Positions 1 to 24,700 of a DNA stretch of 64,000 nt are shown piece by piece. The number at the start of each line of letters is the position of its first letter. Position 1 is the stretch's first letter. This stretch comes from Candidatus Kapaibacterium sp. (GTDB lineage Bacteria; Bacteroidota; Ignavibacteria; Kapaibacteriales; UBA2268), in the NCBI GenBank assembly GCA_963665665.1, contig OY762428.1:2208001-2272000 (forward strand), in the 5' to 3' direction. The notes under the pieces are model-generated. The model was not told the DNA's origin. It did not search any database and worked only from the letters and a program-made list of their open reading frames with translations. Position numbers and translations under genes: made by a program.

Positions 1-990
1 GAATTACTTGCAAAATATTCCGGCAGAAAGCATTGTCTGGCATGCGCATCCGGTACAGACGCACTGCTTATGCCGCTTATGGCCTGGGAAATAGGCCCCG
101 GCGATGCCGTATTCACAAGTCCTTTCACATTTATTGCCACTGCGGAAGTTGTGGGCCTGGTTGGCGCTACACCCGTTTTCGCCGATATTGACGAAAAAAC
201 ATATAATATCGACCCGGTAAAACTGGAAGAAGCAATTATTAAAACAAAAGAAGAAGGCAAGCTAACCCCAAAAGCTATTATTCCCGTTGATTTGTTCGGA
301 CTACCGGCAGATTATGACGCTATTCTTGCAATAGCTGATAAATACGGGCTGGTCGTTCTTGAAGACGCGGCTCAGGGATTCGGGGGAATCTACAAAGGTA
401 AAAAGGCATGCAGCTTCGGACAGGTCTCGGCAACATCCTTCTTCCCGGCAAAGCCTCTCGGCTGCTACGGCGACGGCGGAGCTGTCTTTACAGATGACGA
501 CGATATGAAAGAAAAGCTCGAATCCATCAGGGTTCACGGCCAGGGCCCGGACAAATATACAAATATCCGCCTGGGGCTGAACGGCAGGATAGATTCCATT
601 CAGGCAGGAGTACTGCTTGCCAAAATGACAATATTCGACAAAGAAGGCGAACTCAGGAACAAGGTTGCTGCAAAATATACCGAAGCACTTAAAGGCAAAG
701 TTGTTACACCTACAGTTCCCGAAGGATATACTTCGGTTTGGGCGCAGTATTGCGTGCTGGCCGACAGTGCCGAACAGAGAAAAGAAATCCAGGCAAAGCT
801 TGGGGAAAACAATATTCCAAGCGCTATCTATTATCCCATACCGCTGCACATGCAGGAAGCTTTTGCCAGCCTGGGATATAATAAAGGAGATTTACCTGTA
901 TCGGAAGCAGCGGCAGAAAGAATATTCGCCTTGCCAATGCATCCCTACCTGACAGATGAAGAAATCAACCAGATAGCCGAAGTTATATAA
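1..990 (+). CDS. DegT/DnrJ/EryC1/StrS family PLP-dependent aminotransferase (5' truncated by window)
   Basis: Frame is open from base 1 (ELLAKYSGRKHCLACASGTDALLM...). Motifs EDAAQ and SFFPAKPLGCYGDGG (PLP lysine); C-terminal LPMHPYL. Confidence 0.95.
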   Translation, partial: ELLAKYSGRKHCLACASGTDALLMPLMAWEIGPGDAVFTSPFTFIATAEVVGLVGATPVFADIDEKTYNIDPVKLEEAIIKTKEEGKLTPKAIIPVDLFGLPADYDAILAIADKYGLVVLEDAAQGFGGIYKGKKACSFGQVSATSFFPAKPLGCYGDGGAVFTDDDDMKEKLESIRVHGQGPDKYTNIRLGLNGRIDSIQAGVLLAKMTIFDKEGELRNKVAAKYTEALKGKVVTPTVPEGYTSVWAQYCVLADSAEQRKEIQAKLGENNIPSAIYYPIPLHMQEAFASLGYNKGDLPVSEAAAERIFALPMHPYLTDEEINQIAEVI

Positions 991-1015
991 TCTTTCCAGC
1001 GTAATTCCTATATTT

Positions 1016-1056
1016 ATTCATCCGATGACTTTAAGTTATCGGATGAATTTTTTTTA
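1016..1056 (+). terminator. REP-like hairpin probably acting as intrinsic terminator
   Basis: attcatccgatgactt-t-aagttatcggatgaat followed by a T run, just after the aminotransferase stop; a related hairpin lies at 27036-27068. Confidence 0.7.
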
Positions 1057-1798
1057 CAGTACTGATAATTAATATGGCGAAGGACAATAATTTTAACTTT
1101 TTCCTGCCTGCATTGCCCCGGTGCGGTAATTGTCACAATATTAATAGATAGATCGGAAGATAACGCCTGCTACTTCCCCGATTAATCCAAATCATTGCCT
1201 GCAGTGAGAAAGTCTTTAAACCTCAGATTCTTAGGATTGAAAATAAGAAATATTGCTGCCTTGTTTTAAGTTAATGCTGCCTTGTTCGAAAGCATTGCCG
1301 CCTTGGTTGAAGTCATTGATGCCTTGGTCAGAGGCAAAACACCAATGTTTGACGCCATTGCTGCCTTGTTCAGAAGCAATGTACCAATGGTTGACGCTAT
1401 TGCAGCAATGTTTTGCTTTATTGCTGCCTTGTTCGAAGCTATTGTCGCCTTGTTCCAAATCAAAGCAAGAAAACCACCCCTGTATTCCCCTCCTACTTTA
1501 GGAGGGGATAAGAAGTTAAATAACATAGAATTAACTCCCCCTCCTTTCGAAGGATTTGGCAGAGTAAATGCAGCGATGTTTGAACATATTTCCCCTTTGG
1601 TCGGAATCATGGAACCCTTGTTCCAAAGTAATGCACCGAAGTTTTAACCTATTGCTGCCTTGGTCGAAGCTATTGTCGCCTTGTTCCAAATCAAAGCAAG
1701 AAAACCACCCCTGTATTCCCCTCCTACTTTAGGAGGGGATAAGAAGTTAAATAACATAGAATTAACTCCCCCTCCTTTCGAAGGAGGGGGGCGGGGGG

Positions 1799-3154
1799 CA
1801 TATGCGCTAACTTAGTGAAAATAAGTAATTCATACTACTTTGCCTTTTTCGATGTCCTTCTTTTAGGCAATTAGAAACATCATCCCAGTTGTTAATACAT
1901 TGATACAAAGTAATACCGGGACTGATGATTTTCAATAAAATATCTTTAACAAATACATTTTCACGCCATTGTGATGTACTCCTTTTATCATTCTCTTTTA
2001 TTAAACCTGTAGCCCCAGGGGGAAAAACGCTCACCTTCATCGATAATAGCCTGAGTAAGGAGAGCTGTGATCATCTTAGCATAAAGCCACGCTCGTGCAG
2101 AGTTTTTATCTTTTTTTGGTAAATGCCCCAAGCCAAATTGACTTTTTAGTTTTTTAAATGAAATTTCAACCTGCCATCTCATTCTATATAATTCTAAGAT
2201 ATTATTAGAAGATATATCATTAATCAAAGAAGTCACCAAAACAATATAATCATTAAGTCCTAAAGCTGTAGAACTGATTGTCTGTTGTTTTCTAGCAAAA
2301 TTCTTTTTTGCTTTCTTTCTGGATAACTCAGCTTGCTCCTTGCTTTTTTTGATAGCACATATACGTACAGGAATCTTTTTATTTTTTGAGGAGGAGGAGG
2401 AAATATAAAATATTTTGTCAAATATTTGATCTAACTTTAAACTTTTTAATTCTTTAATAATATCAACTTTATCATTTTTACTATTATATAGTGTAAAACC
2501 TTTATGCTTATATCTGACAACAAAATTTGCTTTCTTTCCGAGAATTTCTGAAATACCCTTATAACTGCAATATGCTCTGTCAATTAAAAAAAGATCAGAA
2601 GAGTTAATTTTGAAATTAGATATAGACTCACCGACTTTTGGGCTGGTAATAATAAATTCGTCACACTTGAGGTTGAACAGATTATGGCTGTAATGAAGTC
2701 TCCAGTCAGTACCTGTTGACCCCGGCTCAGTAACAACAGACGCATCGATACATCTTACATTGAAATCCGACAGCCATTCTGGGGAATCTAATGATATCCC
2801 CCTATTATGAATCAATCCTAATGCAATCCAGCGAAGCCAATCAGCAGACGTCCTCATTTTTTTTAATAACGCAACATCTGATATATCTATATTTCTTTCA
2901 TATTTAAGCTTAGTAGCAACCACCCTCATAGAATGCCCCGTTGCTACATGCATAAGTATTGCTCGAAGTTGCTCAGAAGGTGAATCAAATGCCCTGCGAC
3001 GTTGGAAAGCCTGGAGTTCTTTAGCCTTTAATTCCCATCCCAAAGGAAGTAAGGTTGTAACTACATCCCATTCTTCTATATGCTTGTTGTACTTTTCCAT
3101 TTACAAATATAAAAAAATTATATATAAAAATCAAACACTAAGTTAGCGCTTATG
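1799..3154 (-). mobile_element. Complete IS4-family insertion sequence (1356 bp)
   Basis: 19-bp terminal inverted repeats catatgcgctaacttagtg (1799-1817) and cactaagttagcgcttatg (3136-3154), one mismatch; 11-bp direct repeat ggggcgggggg at 1788-1798 and 3155-3165. Confidence 0.93.
1988..3100 (-). CDS. IS4-family DDE transposase
   Basis: CIDAS / LIDRAY / YRMRWQVEISFK (YREK signature); lies inside the terminal IRs. Confidence 0.93.
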   Translation of the reverse strand: MEKYNKHIEEWDVVTTLLPLGWELKAKELQAFQRRRAFDSPSEQLRAILMHVATGHSMRVVATKLKYERNIDISDVALLKKMRTSADWLRWIALGLIHNRGISLDSPEWLSDFNVRCIDASVVTEPGSTGTDWRLHYSHNLFNLKCDEFIITSPKVGESISNFKINSSDLFLIDRAYCSYKGISEILGKKANFVVRYKHKGFTLYNSKNDKVDIIKELKSLKLDQIFDKIFYISSSSSKNKKIPVRICAIKKSKEQAELSRKKAKKNFARKQQTISSTALGLNDYIVLVTSLINDISSNNILELYRMRWQVEISFKKLKSQFGLGHLPKKDKNSARAWLYAKMITALLTQAIIDEGERFSPWGYRFNKRE

Positions 3155-4158
3155 GGGGCGGGGGGAGGTAGGAAGTGTCGAAAGCAATGTACCAATGGTT
3201 GACGCTATTGCACTGATGTTTGATTTTATTGCCGCCTTGTTTGAAGTCATTGATACCTTGTTTAGAGGCAAAACACCAATGTTTGATTTTATTGATGCCT
3301 TGTTCTTCTTCAAAGCCCGCCCCTTCGGGGAGGGTTTGGGAGGGGTCAGGAGCAAAGCACCAATGTTTGATTCTATTGCTGCCTTGTTCGGAGTCATTGC
3401 AGCCTTGTTTAGAGGCAAAACACCAATGTTTGACGCCATTGCACCGATGTTTGATTTTATTGATGCCTTGGTCTTCTTCAAAGCCCTCTCCTTCGGGGAG
3501 GGTTTGGGAGGGGTCAGAGACAAAACACCGATGTTCGAAGCCATTACTGCCTTGTTCTTCTTCAAAGCCCGCCCCTTCGGGGAGGGTTTGGGAGGGGTCA
3601 GGAGCAAAGCACCAATGTTTGATTCTATTGCTGCCTTGTTCGGAGTCATTGCAGCCTTGTTTAGAGGCAAAACACCAATGTTTGACGCCATTGCACCGAT
3701 GTTTGATTTTATTGATGCCTTGGTCTTCTTCAAAGCCCTCTCCTTCGGGGAGGGTTTGGGAGGGGTCAGAGACAAAACACCGATGTTCGAAGCCATTACT
3801 GCCTTGTTCTTCTTCAAAGCCCGCCCCTTCGGGGAGGGTTTGGGAGGGGTCAGGAGCAAAGCACCAATGTTTGATTCTATTGCTGCCTTGTTCGGAGTCA
3901 TTGCAGCCTTGTTTAGAGGCAAAACACCGATGTTCGAAGCCATTACTGCCTTGGTCGAAGCCATTGACGCCTTGGTTGAAGATAATGTCGCCTTGTTAGG
4001 AATTATTGTTGCCTTGTTTGGAGTCATTGACGCCTTGGTTGAAGGCAATGCAGCAATGTTTTGCTTTATTGATACCTTGTTTGAAGCTATTGCTGCCTTG
4101 TTTGTAGGCATTGCTGCCTTGTTTTGGGGTAATGATTGCTTGTGTAGCGTTGGAATCC

Positions 4159-4685
4159 GGAATATTTAACTGATTGTATTATTAATTAAAATTGAATTAT
4201 TAAATATATGCTCAAAATCAGTAAATATTTAAGTATTTGTAGTAAATATATTTATTTAATTATTGAATAATCATATAGATTTATAATATTAATAATATAA
4301 CTAATCAAATAAATATTTCAAATAAGACATTAATTATTGTTTCTTATAATTTCTTCTTCTTCTTTTCTAAAATATATTAATTATTCAAGTATATATTTAA
4401 TTGTCCTAACAAATTAGATATACTGATTAATTAATAGGTTAATACTAATATTTAATAGTTTATAAATTTAAATTTGTAAATCATATCAATTATTTAATAA
4501 TATATATAATGTATTTAGTTATTTATATAAATAGTTTTGTTAGATGAACTATATCAAGGCTTTGATATATTATATAAATTATTATAAATACTATATATTT
4601 AATACAAATAGTACAATATTTAGTATTTTAGATTGAATATTTGATTATCAGTTCTATCTATAGACTATTCTCATCTCTATCTTTG
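4159..4685. other. Extremely AT-rich non-coding core between the two 21-nt arrays
   Basis: Hand count of 55 G+C in 420 nt (4201-4620), about 13% GC; no ORF; palindrome tatatcaa-ggct-ttgatata at 4550-4569. Confidence 0.85.
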
Positions 4686-5360
4686 GGATTTCAATGCCAA
4701 ACAAGCAATCAATGAGACAGAACAAGTCATCAATGAGGCGGAACAAGACATCAGTAAGGCGGAACAAGTGAGCAATGAGGTGGAACAAGACATCAATAAA
4801 GCAGAACAAGCGTACAATGAGTCGGAACAAGACATCATTGAAGCCAAACATGCAAGTAATGAAGCCAAACAAGACATCAATGAAGCCGGACAAGTGAGCA
4901 ATGAGGCGGAACAAGCATGCAATGAAGCGAAACAAGCAAGCAATGAAGTGGAACAAGACATCAGTAAGGCGGAACAAGCAAGCAATGAGGCGGAACAAGT
5001 GAGTAATGAAGCGGAACAAGTGAGCAGTAAGTCAAACCAAGCAAGCAATGAGACAGAACAAGCATGCAATGAAGCAGAACAAGGCAACAGTAAGGCGGAA
5101 CAAGACATCAGTAAGGCGAAACAAGACATCAATAAAGCAGAACAAGACATCAATGAAGCAGAACAAGACATCAGTAATGCGGAACAAGCAAGCAATGAAG
5201 CCGGACAAGTGTGCAGTAAGGCAAACCAAGTGAGCAATGAAGCGGAACAAGTCATCAATAAGGCTAAACAAGCAAGCAATGAAGCCAAATTTCACTACAT
5301 TAAGGCCAAAGAATGCTTCAATACCTCCGGACAAGGCAGTATAAAGCCTCGCCAACAAAG
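4686..5360 (+). repeat. Degenerate 21-nt tandem array (right arm), about 31 units; one frame reads as an (S/I)NEAEQ(A/D/V) heptad repeat
   Basis: Units like caatgaggcggaacaagacat at 4710, 4731, 4752 ... 5277, 5298, 5319; frame open 4645-5367 without an ATG start. Confidence 0.9.
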
Positions 5361-5512
5361 CGATTAGCCCAAACATCAGGGTTTTGATTAAAAACAGCAT
5401 TGAATTAAGGAAATTATCCGGTTCATTGAAACCAGAGGATGTGGAATTAAGGCCGGCGGTTGGTTCATTGGGGTGGAAGAACGGGGGGTAAGGGCCGGAG
5501 AAGGAGGTATTA

Positions 5513-5800
5513 TGTTGCCTTTCTGACGGAGCGAAGCGACCGAAGAATCCATCTTTTCTGGCAAATAATTTTAAAGAATGGATACTTCGCTCCGCTCAGA
5601 ATGACCTTCCAGCCTTATAATCGTCAAATTCAATAGCCAGGTGCTTTAGCTCGTGGATAAGGGGGGATAAGAAAAAGAATCCACCCCAGCCTGTCCCGAC
5701 TTGTCGGGAACTCGCTGCGCTCGCCAACCCTCAACGAGGGGAATTTTAAGAATCCACCCCCGCCCTTCCCCGATGCGTCGGGGCCGGCGGTGGACAGATG
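5513..5800. repeat. Mosaic of REP/MITE-like palindromic elements
   Basis: Inverted pair ttctgacggagcgaagc...acttcgctccgctcagaa; two aagaatccacccc starts; 16-bp palindromes at 5694-5709 and 5768-5783. Confidence 0.65.
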
Positions 5801-5815
5801 TAACCGAAAAATTAC

Positions 5816-7984
5816 TCACTCCTTCACAAACATGCCTGAAATAATATCATTGCCAGTTTCGATTCTGATGTAGTAAATGCCTGCCGGAAAATCACGGAGA
5901 GGAATGCTTGTATTGTGTTCCATTACAGCGGAAAAAGTGGTGTTCATGTAAACTTTTGCGCCGAGCTGGTTATATACGCTGATATTTGCCGGGGCTATGG
6001 TTGATGTTCTAAATTTCAGGTCAATAAAATCAGTGGCGGGGCAGGGAGATATATTGATTTCCCCGGATACGATTGTTTTAATTTCGTTTTCAACTGAAAG
6101 GGATGTTTTTTCGCTGCGGTAAAGCCCTGCGTCTTTTTCGGCAAAATAGATATATCCTTCCGGGCTGACGGACAGAAAATTGAATTGGCTTGGCCCATGT
6201 ATCAGGCCTGTTGAAATATCGCTCCAATCATAAAAATCATCAGTACTTTTCAGGCGTTGAAATTTATCTGCCCGGCCATGAAAACCTATCAAGCGGTTAA
6301 GGGAATCTACTCCTAAGAACATTCTCGGATAATTCAGAGAATCGCGGAACCAAGACCTGCCGTTATCTGAAGTACGAATATTCCAATGACTATAACCATT
6401 GGAGTACTTATCAAATAACAACATTCTGATTTCTTGTTCAGTGATACCATTCAAAAAATAATTCATTTTGGCAAATGCCCATGTTTCCCCGTCATCTGTT
6501 GACCTGTATATCTGCCCGTTGTCACTTCCCCTGAAAATATGCCCTTCTGAGTTCATAGCAAATGAATAGGTATCACCTTCAATAGATCTTTTTTGCCATG
6601 TTATTCCTTTATCAGTTGAATAAATCAATTTATTCCCGAAGTCATGCGCCATATAAATTTGTCCCCTGCTGTTCTCGAAAAAACTATTTGGACTGGCATT
6701 TGTTGAAAATTCCGATCTTGTGCGATATTCCCAGCTTTCCCCTCCGTCAGTGGATCGAGCTGTTTTATAACTGCCGCTATTTGAACTGACAATAATATAA
6801 TCATCTCGGGTAATATAAATAACCGACCATGTTGAATTTTCAACAAGCTTAAGATCTCTCCATGTAATTCCATCATCTGAAGATTTTAAAACTCTTCCAT
6901 TTGCGGTAACAAATATGCTCCCTTCGCTGTCATAGCTTATTCCTTTTACATCAGTAGATACGATTCCTTTATTAGATTCTGTCCAGGTTCTTCCTCCGTT
7001 TCTTGAATAAAAAAAACCCTGCCAATTACCTGCATAAAGTTCTCCATTACCTAATGAAATCATATTTTCAAATGGAGTGTTTTCGCTTTCAAGTGTCATT
7101 ATCTGCCATGTTTTTCCGCTGTCAACCGATTTGAAAACCGAAAAATAATCATCATCAATGCCATTAGCAAAAAGTTCATTTTGGGAGTTACGGCACAAGT
7201 ATTTTGAAAAACCTTCAATATTTGTAGCATTCCAGGTTTCACCTTTATCTTCCGAATAGTAAACTCCGTAGGTAGTGGCAATAACAATTTTTTCATTTGT
7301 TATAAACTCAGCTTTAAAAACACAATAAGGTGTTTCAATGTATTGCCATGATCGCCCGGAATCAGGACTGATAAATATAAAACCTTCATCAATATAATCC
7401 ACATAGCCTATTATCACCATTTCGTCATACTGATTTATATAATAATCCCTTTTATAAAATGCTTTTGAAACTGATAATTTATAGCTGTTTATTTTAACGA
7501 TTTCCTTCAGATCCGGAACCGAATAACTTAAAATTGAATCACTTTTAAAGATAACTCCAAACACATTATTATTATTATCCATTGCATATATTGGCATTAA
7601 ATTATCAGGAGTAAAAGAATCAATTCCATAGTCTTCGTCAAAGAAATTTACCTGCCAGGTATCTCCATTGTTAGTTGATCTATAGTATACTAAATCACCC
7701 TTATGCGAATCATCCCCTCCGTAACGGATAAACCTTATCAATGATCCATCAGGATAAGACATTACTTTTCCATAATAATAAAAATCTTTCAGCCATTTCC
7801 AGCTTCTTCCAAAATCATCGGAACGATAGTGTCCGTTATCAGTATCAATAAATATCCTCCCGTTCAAACTAAACAAATCTCTTATGGTTCCCCCTTCCGG
7901 CCCCCAGAGGTATTTCCAGAAATCACCGGCAAGAAGGTTGAAGGGAACAATAATAAATAAGGCAATCAGTAACAGCTTTTTCAT
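5816..7984 (-). CDS. Secreted BNR/Asp-box beta-propeller protein with T9SS C-terminal sorting domain
   Basis: Signal peptide MKKLLLIALF; many SxDxGxTW repeats; C-terminal ISPCPA...VYNQLG...GIYYIRI...FVKE. Confidence 0.88.
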   Translation of the reverse strand: MKKLLLIALFIIVPFNLLAGDFWKYLWGPEGGTIRDLFSLNGRIFIDTDNGHYRSDDFGRSWKWLKDFYYYGKVMSYPDGSLIRFIRYGGDDSHKGDLVYYRSTNNGDTWQVNFFDEDYGIDSFTPDNLMPIYAMDNNNNVFGVIFKSDSILSYSVPDLKEIVKINSYKLSVSKAFYKRDYYINQYDEMVIIGYVDYIDEGFIFISPDSGRSWQYIETPYCVFKAEFITNEKIVIATTYGVYYSEDKGETWNATNIEGFSKYLCRNSQNELFANGIDDDYFSVFKSVDSGKTWQIMTLESENTPFENMISLGNGELYAGNWQGFFYSRNGGRTWTESNKGIVSTDVKGISYDSEGSIFVTANGRVLKSSDDGITWRDLKLVENSTWSVIYITRDDYIIVSSNSGSYKTARSTDGGESWEYRTRSEFSTNASPNSFFENSRGQIYMAHDFGNKLIYSTDKGITWQKRSIEGDTYSFAMNSEGHIFRGSDNGQIYRSTDDGETWAFAKMNYFLNGITEQEIRMLLFDKYSNGYSHWNIRTSDNGRSWFRDSLNYPRMFLGVDSLNRLIGFHGRADKFQRLKSTDDFYDWSDISTGLIHGPSQFNFLSVSPEGYIYFAEKDAGLYRSEKTSLSVENEIKTIVSGEINISPCPATDFIDLKFRTSTIAPANISVYNQLGAKVYMNTTFSAVMEHNTSIPLRDFPAGIYYIRIETGNDIISGMFVKE

Positions 7985-8046
7985 AGTTTTCATATCTTTC
8001 ATTTTTTTTAATATTTGAAATATTCAAATTATAACGTTTCTAAAAT

Positions 8047-24447: not shown

Positions 24448-24700
24448 CTCTGACCCCTCCCAAACACACGCGGTGTGGAACCCTCGCAAGGGGACGTGCC
24501 TCCCCGAAGGGGAGGGCTTTGCAGTAAGCCCCTGCACTCTTTCCCAAGCCCCCGCTTGGGAAGGTAAGTTACCGGCGAATTTACTATTAAGCACTCTTAG
24601 TGTAGCATTGCGAAGCGGGGCTTCGCTACGAGACTGAATATAAAAGCACCGTCGTGACGATAATTGTATCTACAAAAATTTCGCTCCTACGGAGCTTTTT
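24448..24700. repeat. Cluster of REP-like hairpin elements, including a copy of the element found in the left 21-nt array with a 33-bp nested insert
   Basis: ctctgacccctcccaaac[33 bp]cctccccgaaggggagggctttg; ttcccaagc-ccc-cgcttgggaa; gcgaagc-ggg-gcttcgc; gctcctacggagc. Confidence 0.7.

Follow-up and report, generated by a model that had tools for sequence, protein, structure and literature searches.

21-nt tandem arrays with hairpin modules in a shared register in a Candidatus Kapaibacterium genome

BIMEs in enterobacteria and NIMEs in Neisseria are regular mosaics of palindromic units and linker motifs between genes, and the MIRU of Mycobacterium tuberculosis are units of 46–101 bp that lie within operons and contain small open reading frames (ORFs). 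Here we describe a family of tandem arrays with a 21-nt unit in the genome of Candidatus Kapaibacterium sp. (GenBank assembly GCA_963665665.1), based on array 1, which occupies positions 1252–4140 of a 64,000-nt stretch of contig OY762428.1 (positions 2,208,001–2,272,000, forward strand) and is interrupted by hairpin-forming blocks and by an insertion sequence (IS). The whole stretch is referred to as the window, and positions are in window numbering unless they are marked as genome positions.

The BOX elements of Streptococcus pneumoniae are built of boxA, tandem boxB and boxC; they are intergenic, over-represented between convergent genes, present at dozens of loci per genome and regarded as DNA that is non-autonomous, parasitic or regulatory, with BIMEs and NIMEs named as background mosaic elements (Croucher et al. 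2011, BMC Genomics 12:120, PMC3049150).

The array family in Candidatus Kapaibacterium is a lineage-specific, non-coding, intergenic composite repeat, of which array 1 is one copy. Both blocks that appear foreign to array 1 are fixed modules of the arrays of its unit type, type A, and the 21-bp register in which they sit is strongly conserved, yet neither enforced nor absolute. We lean towards an origin in which a few founding entries of these modules set the register and in-register recombination kept it, the exceptions showing no enforcement.

Register in array 1 and across the genome

The A-type units begin at 1252 and have the consensus ATTGCTGCCTTGTTCGAAGTC. As read from a 21-nt register print-out and from the tandem-repeat calls of TRF, a single register spans 1252 to 4140 after subtraction of the IS and one copy of its 11-bp target duplication (1367 bp). 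The locus is composed as follows, with L and S denoting the two hairpin modules.

1252–1461, plus strand: ten A-type 21-nt units, outer end of array 1 (register print-out; TRF period 21/42)
1462–1566, plus strand: L module copy 1, 105 nt or five slots, with hairpin 1 intact (10 bp) (register print-out, fold)
1567–1692, plus strand: six degenerate A-type units separating the two L copies (register print-out)
1693–1798, plus strand: L module copy 2, left 106 nt, the final 11 nt (1788–1798) being one IS target duplication
1799–3154, minus strand: IS of 1356 bp, with transposase ORF 1988–3100 (DDE_Tnp_1, Pfam, 54.7 bits)
3155–3165, no strand: IS target duplication of 11 bp, second copy, GGGGCGGGGGG (first copy at 1788–1798)
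3166–3185, plus strand: L module copy 2, right 20 nt (106 + 20 = 126 nt, six slots)
3186–4140, plus strand: A-type units in the register of 1252–1798, with five S slots, bordering the AT-rich spacer
3264–3944, plus strand: 252-nt (12-slot) higher-order repeat, 2.7 copies, 97% matches (TRF)
3312–3353, plus strand: S module (42-nt slot), first of five (sequence match, hairpin fold)
3480–3521, 3564–3605, 3732–3773 and 3816–3857, plus strand: further S modules
4141–4695, no strand: AT-rich spacer, weakly periodic at 21 nt (lag-21 identity 0.49 versus about 0.37 at other lags)
4696–5290, minus strand: A2-type 21-nt array, inverted, plus-strand consensus GAACAAGCAAGCAATGAAGCG
5291–5815, no strand: conserved outer flank of decayed 21-nt units followed by GC-rich hairpin repeats, reaching the stop of the convergent gene 5816–8002

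The initial annotation had described a non-repeat block at 1462–1566 (105 = 5 × 21) with a duplicate 231 nt on, a 42-nt block repeated five times within a 252-nt repeat, and a phase that is restored by removal of 1367 bp. All three descriptions are borne out, with refinements. The duplicate, L copy 2, starts at 1693, 231 nt after the start of L copy 1, and is 126 nt long without the IS; an uninterrupted copy identical to it is present elsewhere in the genome. L copy 1 is one slot, exactly 21 nt, shorter than copy 2, with the junction in non-homologous sequence and the second hairpin cut from 11 bp to 5 bp. The five S copies represent two sequence variants multiplied by the 252-nt higher-order repeat. 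For the IS, 1356 + 11 = 1367 bp and 3186 − 1672 − 1367 = 147 = 7 × 21; the gap of 1536 across the IS becomes 169 after the same subtraction, which equals 1 mod 21, as in 31 other same-family gaps.

Interruption lengths modulo 21 and modulo 3, whose tabulation the initial annotation had proposed, were collected over the whole genome (a single contig of 5.46 Mb, 38.6% G+C) as distances between successive unit hits of the same family and strand that lie at most 700 nt apart. A total of 346 distances exceed 21 nt, and 331 of them are multiples of 21, in support of the annotation. Its further statement that foreign blocks occur only in exact multiples of 21 is correct for the window but not for the family. 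Fifteen distances are out of register, 5 being other multiples of 3 and 10 neither, where the listing itself shows 6 multiples of 3, a discrepancy of one. Nine of these cases were printed: five are S copies whose G-rich halves are separated by an insert (two of 16 nt, one of 17 nt, two of 33 nt), and the remaining four comprise two +1 indels, one in L and one in S, one −1 shift and one +9 partial unit. Downstream of each printed break the array proceeds in the shifted phase.

Counted by module, nested 16-, 17- or 33-nt hairpins are present in 7 of the 76 array copies of S, and ±1 indels in 2 of the 48 of L. A further break of the register comes from the IS and its duplication (1367 bp = 2 mod 21). 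A arrays hold two kinds of insertion in register, S and L, and three out of register, namely hairpins of 16 and 33 nt and the IS. Nested hairpins, single-base indels and the IS all break the phase without ending the array, and the register is thus not an enforced one.

The entire 4.5-kb structure sits between the 3′ ends of two convergent genes. One of these, 5816–8002 (minus strand), is a 728-aa ORF whose C-terminal end, as read from the translation, appears to resemble a type IX secretion sorting domain. The AT-rich spacer recurs at 80–87% identity in 7 other loci. No Rfam match was obtained for window positions 1–8000 at E up to 1, and among seven translated window frames Pfam returned the DDE_Tnp_1 transposase and otherwise just low-complexity repeat-frame hits (Alanine_zipper, Tryp_inh).

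Composition and origin of the hairpin modules

Among 251 in-register gaps of family A, 84 contain at least one strongly diverged slot, and it is there that S and L recur, in constant register. S, a hairpin element rich in G and about 35 nt long, occupies a 42-nt slot here and is intact in 69 of 76 array copies (end-anchored count). L, of 126 nt, is intact in 46 of the 48 array copies having both anchors, and folds into two hairpins with stems of 10–11 bp (z = −3.8); the stems are kept across copies and the loops are variable. Since two module types are inherited with the arrays, the in-phase blocks are not independent events. The initial annotation had proposed selection on the period or a length-conserving replacement mechanism, and this is upheld in that the register is conserved and that some chimeric slots look like in-register replacement; it is weakened in that the in-phase blocks are two inherited modules from about two founding events and not dozens.

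In the origin that we favor, each module would go back to one or a few entries into an ancestral A array. Its spread would then have been due to tandem duplication, to unequal crossing-over and gene conversion between unit-aligned arrays, and to the copying of whole elements to new intergenic sites. Such processes would add, remove or swap whole 21-bp slots only, and the descendants of an in-register module would stay in register. The shared flanks of the modules suggest one or few acquisitions of each, and recombination is the probable copying process. In 62 of 84 copies, S is preceded by the same T/C-rich unit variant, whereas the units that follow it are of 24 types; this combination of a near-constant left and a varied right neighbor fits shuffling by in-register exchange. 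Exchange is further indicated by the 252-nt repeat, by the decayed edge units and by a match between window positions 1650–3263, IS included, and genome positions 2158269–2159882, a locus 50 kb away, that is gap-free with 98% identity over 1614 nt.

The S slot has unit-like ends. Its first 5 nt are AAAGC, and its last 9 nt, GTC followed by a variable tail (AGAGGT, GGAGTC, AGAAGC etc.), behave like positions 13–21 of ordinary units. Such ends would be expected from a length-conserving overwrite, in which solitary S- or L-type hairpins convert an array via short end matches (AAAGC on the left, GTC on the right) and 28–45 nt are swapped for an equal length. S also occurs both inside and outside arrays in each of its forms (see below), and L-like halves are found outside arrays in other contexts, for instance 132 nt apart near genome position 1.354 Mb, which is in agreement with an overwrite; this spacing indicates, furthermore, that L is not bound to 21 nt elsewhere. 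However, the mechanism does not force equal length, the array copies of S with a 16-nt or a 33-nt insert are not length-conserving, and the nearly constant left context of S points to descent rather than to repeated conversion, so that we regard an overwrite of this kind as improbable. Under descent with in-register recombination, the chimeric slots, i.e., the S ends and L copy 1, would be the result of patch-wise conversion in an in-register alignment, a mundane form of length-conserving replacement. The genome region 1354150–1356700 is a larger tandem-repeat cluster that reuses L hairpin 1 in another context with 132-nt spacing, and adjoins a B/A array.

Three forms of S are observed inside arrays and as solitary copies: the plain form, a form with the 16-nt hairpin CCACACCGCGTGTGTT nested between the G-rich halves (S+16), and a form in which a 33-nt insert adds a second small hairpin (S+33). 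These forms suggest hairpins inserting into hairpins. The window itself contains one solitary copy.

24448–24521, minus strand: solitary S with a 33-nt nested hairpin insert, S+33 (sequence match, fold)

The initial annotation had noted a similar free-standing block at this position; a solitary S is indeed present there, but it is on the minus strand and carries the nested insert. Further loci with S forms are at genome positions 625966, 1293091, 1464694, 2465525, 3024333, 3849885 and 3889434.

Outside this genome, a 22-nt core of S is matched exactly at 60 loci in other species, mostly Bacteroidota (Prolixibacteraceae, Chitinophaga, Mucilaginibacter, Flavobacterium and one Kapaibacterium metagenome-assembled genome) with a few other phyla, and the core together with the C-rich arm, about 35 nt, is almost unchanged across many Bacteroidota. 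In these species S is solitary, usually has a T-run on its 5′ side, and is often located 15–25 nt upstream of an ATG. None of the 60 loci lies in a 21-nt array; one flank of 60 has a lag-21 identity above 0.45, and that flank holds an N run. Because S is solitary in other species and never within 21-nt arrays there, it is foreign to the arrays in origin, which confirms for S the view of the initial annotation that the hairpin block is of foreign origin. At three Patescibacteria loci, S directly precedes what looks like a conserved motif of aminoacyl-tRNA synthetases.

By its base sequence, the 3′ half of S with its four G-tracts (GGGG A GGG TTT GGG A GGGG) fits the usual pattern of G-tracts for a quadruplex, and is a candidate for such a structure. 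Y1_Tnp is a kind of gene associated with REP-type hairpin repeats, and the genome contains one full-length and one partial example: Y1_Tnp (PF01797) at genome positions 1821817–1822161 (75.7 bits, 155-aa open frame), and a partial Y1_Tnp (34.4 bits) at 2725416–2725598 inside a 1399-aa open frame.

The interrupting IS has a DDE transposase, inverted ends (CATATGCGCTAACTTAGTG / CACTAAGTTAGCGCTTATG) and a target duplication of fixed length, and presumably belongs to the IS4-like family. There are seven full copies in the genome, i.e., the window copy and those at genome positions 136468, 371187, 997128, 1346668, 2158378 and 2483115, and all seven are flanked by 11-bp duplications. In contigs from four public DNA runs, which over window positions 1–8000 are too fragmented inside the arrays for a comparison of strain alleles, the IS (1799–3154) was assembled as a separate contig with a depth of about five-fold. 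Five of the seven copies are within S or L modules of 21-nt arrays, three of those five at the same L G-run; this placement reflects either targeting of G/C-rich hairpins or spread between arrays through recombination.

Array families, reading frames and the 21-bp period

Among the tandem-repeat periods of the genome, 21 dominates with 48,862 nt, and its multiples come next. The units fall into the families A, A2, B, C and D, in all of which the period is exactly 21 bp (lag-21 identity 0.57–0.87). A and A2 match at 15 of 21 positions, and every other pair of families at no more than 11 of 21 (best over 42 alignments each), which is chance level; the possibility that A and B are diverged copies of one unit was dropped on the same count. 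A 7-nt sub-period was not found, lag-7 identity (0.20–0.23) and lag-14 identity (0.19–0.23) being at or below those of most other lags, and lag analysis gave no 3-nt sub-period in B, C or D.

These families make up 86 composite loci, every one of which lies outside non-array ORFs of at least 150 aa. Intervals between convergent genes hold 35 of the 86 loci, compared with 537 of 3439 gene pairs (16%) genome-wide. Homology between loci stops 100–900 nt past the arrays, where the neighboring genes are unique and differ from locus to locus. Arrays contain 10–70 units and reach 1.5–3 kb, with decayed units at their edges. The order of modules is fixed as L, A units with S, junction, B units and decayed flank, and D/C and A–spacer–A2 forms are found as well. 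Where B abuts inverted A, 33 of 34 junctions share one register, and the exception contains an IS; D abutting inverted C shows an identical gap in 10 of 10 junctions; and A, AT-rich spacer and inverted A2 keep one register in 9 of 11 cases, the remaining 2 being off by one base. The 260 nt adjoining B arrays align without gaps in 32 of 32 copies.

A CRISPR array is ruled out, the units being arranged head to tail without spacers. Fold-back is pronounced for the A/B pair (z = −5.9) and not for the C/D pair (z = +0.2), and a fold-back hairpin was rejected as a general property of the arrays on account of the latter value. For a structured RNA in the conserved B flank, the consensus energy is just about −20 kcal/mol over 283 nt, and this reading was not adopted.

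The orientation of the A/B composites differs between chromosome halves: below genome position 2.85 Mb there are 17 B+A− and 2 A+B− loci, and above it 3 and 11, respectively. The switch does not coincide with the GC-skew minimum (about 1.7–1.9 Mb), dnaA (1.55 Mb) or the skew maximum (about 5 Mb), and a replication-strand cause of A/B orientation was rejected, as the orientation is without relation to local GC skew (Fisher p = 0.17). Lone C arrays follow the local skew: negative skew surrounds 5 of the 6 minus-oriented arrays, and positive skew 8 of the 10 that are plus-oriented (p = 0.035). They consist of about 12 units of CCGAGCGTTCCCCCGTGCTTT within a conserved element of about 700 nt, with a shared flank of about 190 nt on the left and about 270 nt on the right.

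Genome positions 930054, 1248689, 2118199, 3689024, 4451559, 4872889, 4960615, 5005118 and 5257778: lone C arrays

Terminal inverted repeats and a target-site duplication would mark the ends of a MITE; an alignment of 9 lone-C elements with 420-nt flanks makes the boundaries visible, with no obvious inverted ends or duplications by eye.

The arrays look non-coding. Freedom from stops was assessed by counts of open arrays; a comparison of stop depletion with a position-weight null was set aside as unreliable, since the units fall into few discrete types. Of 63 A arrays, at most 29 have any given frame open; for IAALFEV, the most protein-like frame, the number is 27, and TAA is a common unit variant there (71 units). 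In the window, frames of 322–324 aa in array 1 and of 199 aa in a second array, array 2, are open because the unit lacks stops. The period of 21 nt corresponds to seven codons, and the arrays might accordingly encode heptad-repeat (coiled-coil-like) proteins in which in-frame, in-heptad insertions are kept for the protein register. Besides the open frames of the window, L is open in two frames, and the plus frame of array 2 scores 30.7 bits on the Pfam family Alanine_zipper, a score that is what a low-complexity heptad yields. Of three protein-database searches, with lengths near that of the query, the first and third were empty and the second gave one protein, which was called in the IAALFEV frame, is 53% identical and also contains the L and S modules; its source is a single 111-kb contig of a near-identical organism.

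An encoded heptad protein is nonetheless very hard to reconcile with the remaining data, and we consider it highly improbable. In addition to the minority of open arrays and the TAA-bearing units, register shifts of 1, 16, 17 and 20 nt disrupt every frame, and the conserved ATG frame beside B arrays has TAA in most of 32 copies. The between-unit ratio of non-synonymous to synonymous differences (pN/pS) is uninformative, at 0.45–2.41 over all frames and families, with none below 0.45 and no outlier frame. The missing 3-nt periodicity of B, C and D and the two empty protein searches likewise speak against coding, and there is neither a signal peptide nor a non-repeat domain. The premise of the initial annotation, that keeping a reading frame needs only multiples of 3, is therefore void: the arrays are non-coding, and 9–10 of the 15 exceptions to the register are not multiples of 3.

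A spacing of about two helical turns is characteristic of iteron and partition-site arrays, and the spacing here is exactly 21 bp in all families. The period could itself be selected, the arrays serving as phased binding or structural DNA for a protein, and modules surviving mainly when the units stay on one helix face. Selection of this type would account for the common period of the unrelated families (A and A2 aside) and for the proportion of distances in phase, for the AT-rich spacer, which is also periodic and of register-keeping length in 9 of 11 cases, for few indels despite a divergence of 13–20% and for the lack of a maintained frame. Phase-breaking variants persist, however, in at least 9 arrays; a cognate protein has not been identified, and no search for Rep or Par genes was made; the arrays have no match in 40 relatives or, twice, in 120 genomes of the order; and 86 loci with 10–70 units are, to our knowledge, unlike known iteron or centromere arrays, which also counts against a selected period. 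On balance we judge a selected period unlikely.

Several of these observations weigh at the same time against descent from a few founding entries. Both founding modules fit exactly (42 and 126 nt), for which the chance would be about 1 in 441 if they were unconstrained and independent, a figure calculated after the fact. L copy 1 is shorter by precisely one slot, with a junction that lacks homology. Indels are rare at 13–20% divergence between copies, as in the gap-free alignment of the B flanks (32/32) and the register of the junctions (33/34, 10/10 and 9/11), and this scarcity could reflect a constraint on length. Moreover, several unrelated families are exactly 21 bp long, and descent alone is without explanation for this. 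The exact fit of the modules, the scarce indels and the shared period keep alive the alternative of a constrained two-turn period. In its functional form, which we consider unlikely but worth stating, the 21-bp register would define chromosome-wide, helically phased arrays of several sequence families at 86 loci that provide a scaffold on which proteins bind cooperatively or the nucleoid is structured; modules of the G-rich hairpin or quadruplex type would be tolerated, in the main, at whole double turns.

With no reading frame, and with about two founding events copied in register, the puzzle of the block phase mostly dissolves, and the array family emerges as a more interesting object than the phasing itself. 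It is unusual for a bacterium that non-coding arrays with a strict 21-bp period, from several unrelated families and with fixed composite architectures, take up more than 1% of its genome (5.46 Mb). Should DNA geometry or a single array-making mechanism underlie the period, this organism would be well suited to studying how satellite-like DNA originates in bacteria and whether its role is structural. S is of interest on its own, as a near-identical element of about 35 nt recurring across Bacteroidota.

Distribution and relation to described repeats

A query composed of the AT-rich spacer and A2 gave, in 40 relatives, matches confined to the AT-rich or GC-hairpin parts, and the array was never matched; in each of two further searches of the order, none of 120 genomes had a match. 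The relatives are samples, many of them fragmented and with repeats often unassembled, and the result is accordingly that the arrays were not found among about 160 related genomes searched. A degenerate three-unit A pattern detected 2 loci in metagenome contigs, both chance stretches in unrelated sequence. In the open-access literature searched, no description of 21-bp dispersed arrays or repeats in Kapabacteria was found.

The arrays have dispersed intergenic copies, an ordered mosaic with a variable tandem part, and enrichment between convergent genes. The nearest described kind of element is the composite interspersed repeat, and BIMEs, NIMEs and MIRU are looser parallels. With BIMEs and NIMEs the arrays share an intergenic mosaic in which hairpin units and other motifs are arranged regularly, but in BIMEs the hairpin itself is repeated, whereas here a non-palindromic 21-mer is repeated and hairpins are occasional inserts. 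The likeness to MIRU consists in one unit family at tens of dispersed intergenic loci with a copy number that varies in whole units; unlike MIRU, the arrays here are without a maintained frame and have embedded hairpin modules. The closest correspondence is with BOX (Croucher et al., PMC3049150): both are composite and interspersed, and both have a tandem part that varies in copy number and is framed by end modules. BOX elements are 67–637 bp long with few boxB units, whereas the present arrays have 10–70 units of exactly 21 bp and reach 1.5–3 kb, and no terminal inverted repeats are seen by eye here (lone-C elements). What further distinguishes the Candidatus Kapaibacterium arrays from BOX is that they comprise several unrelated unit families with one shared period, and that the hairpin modules are in register within the array.

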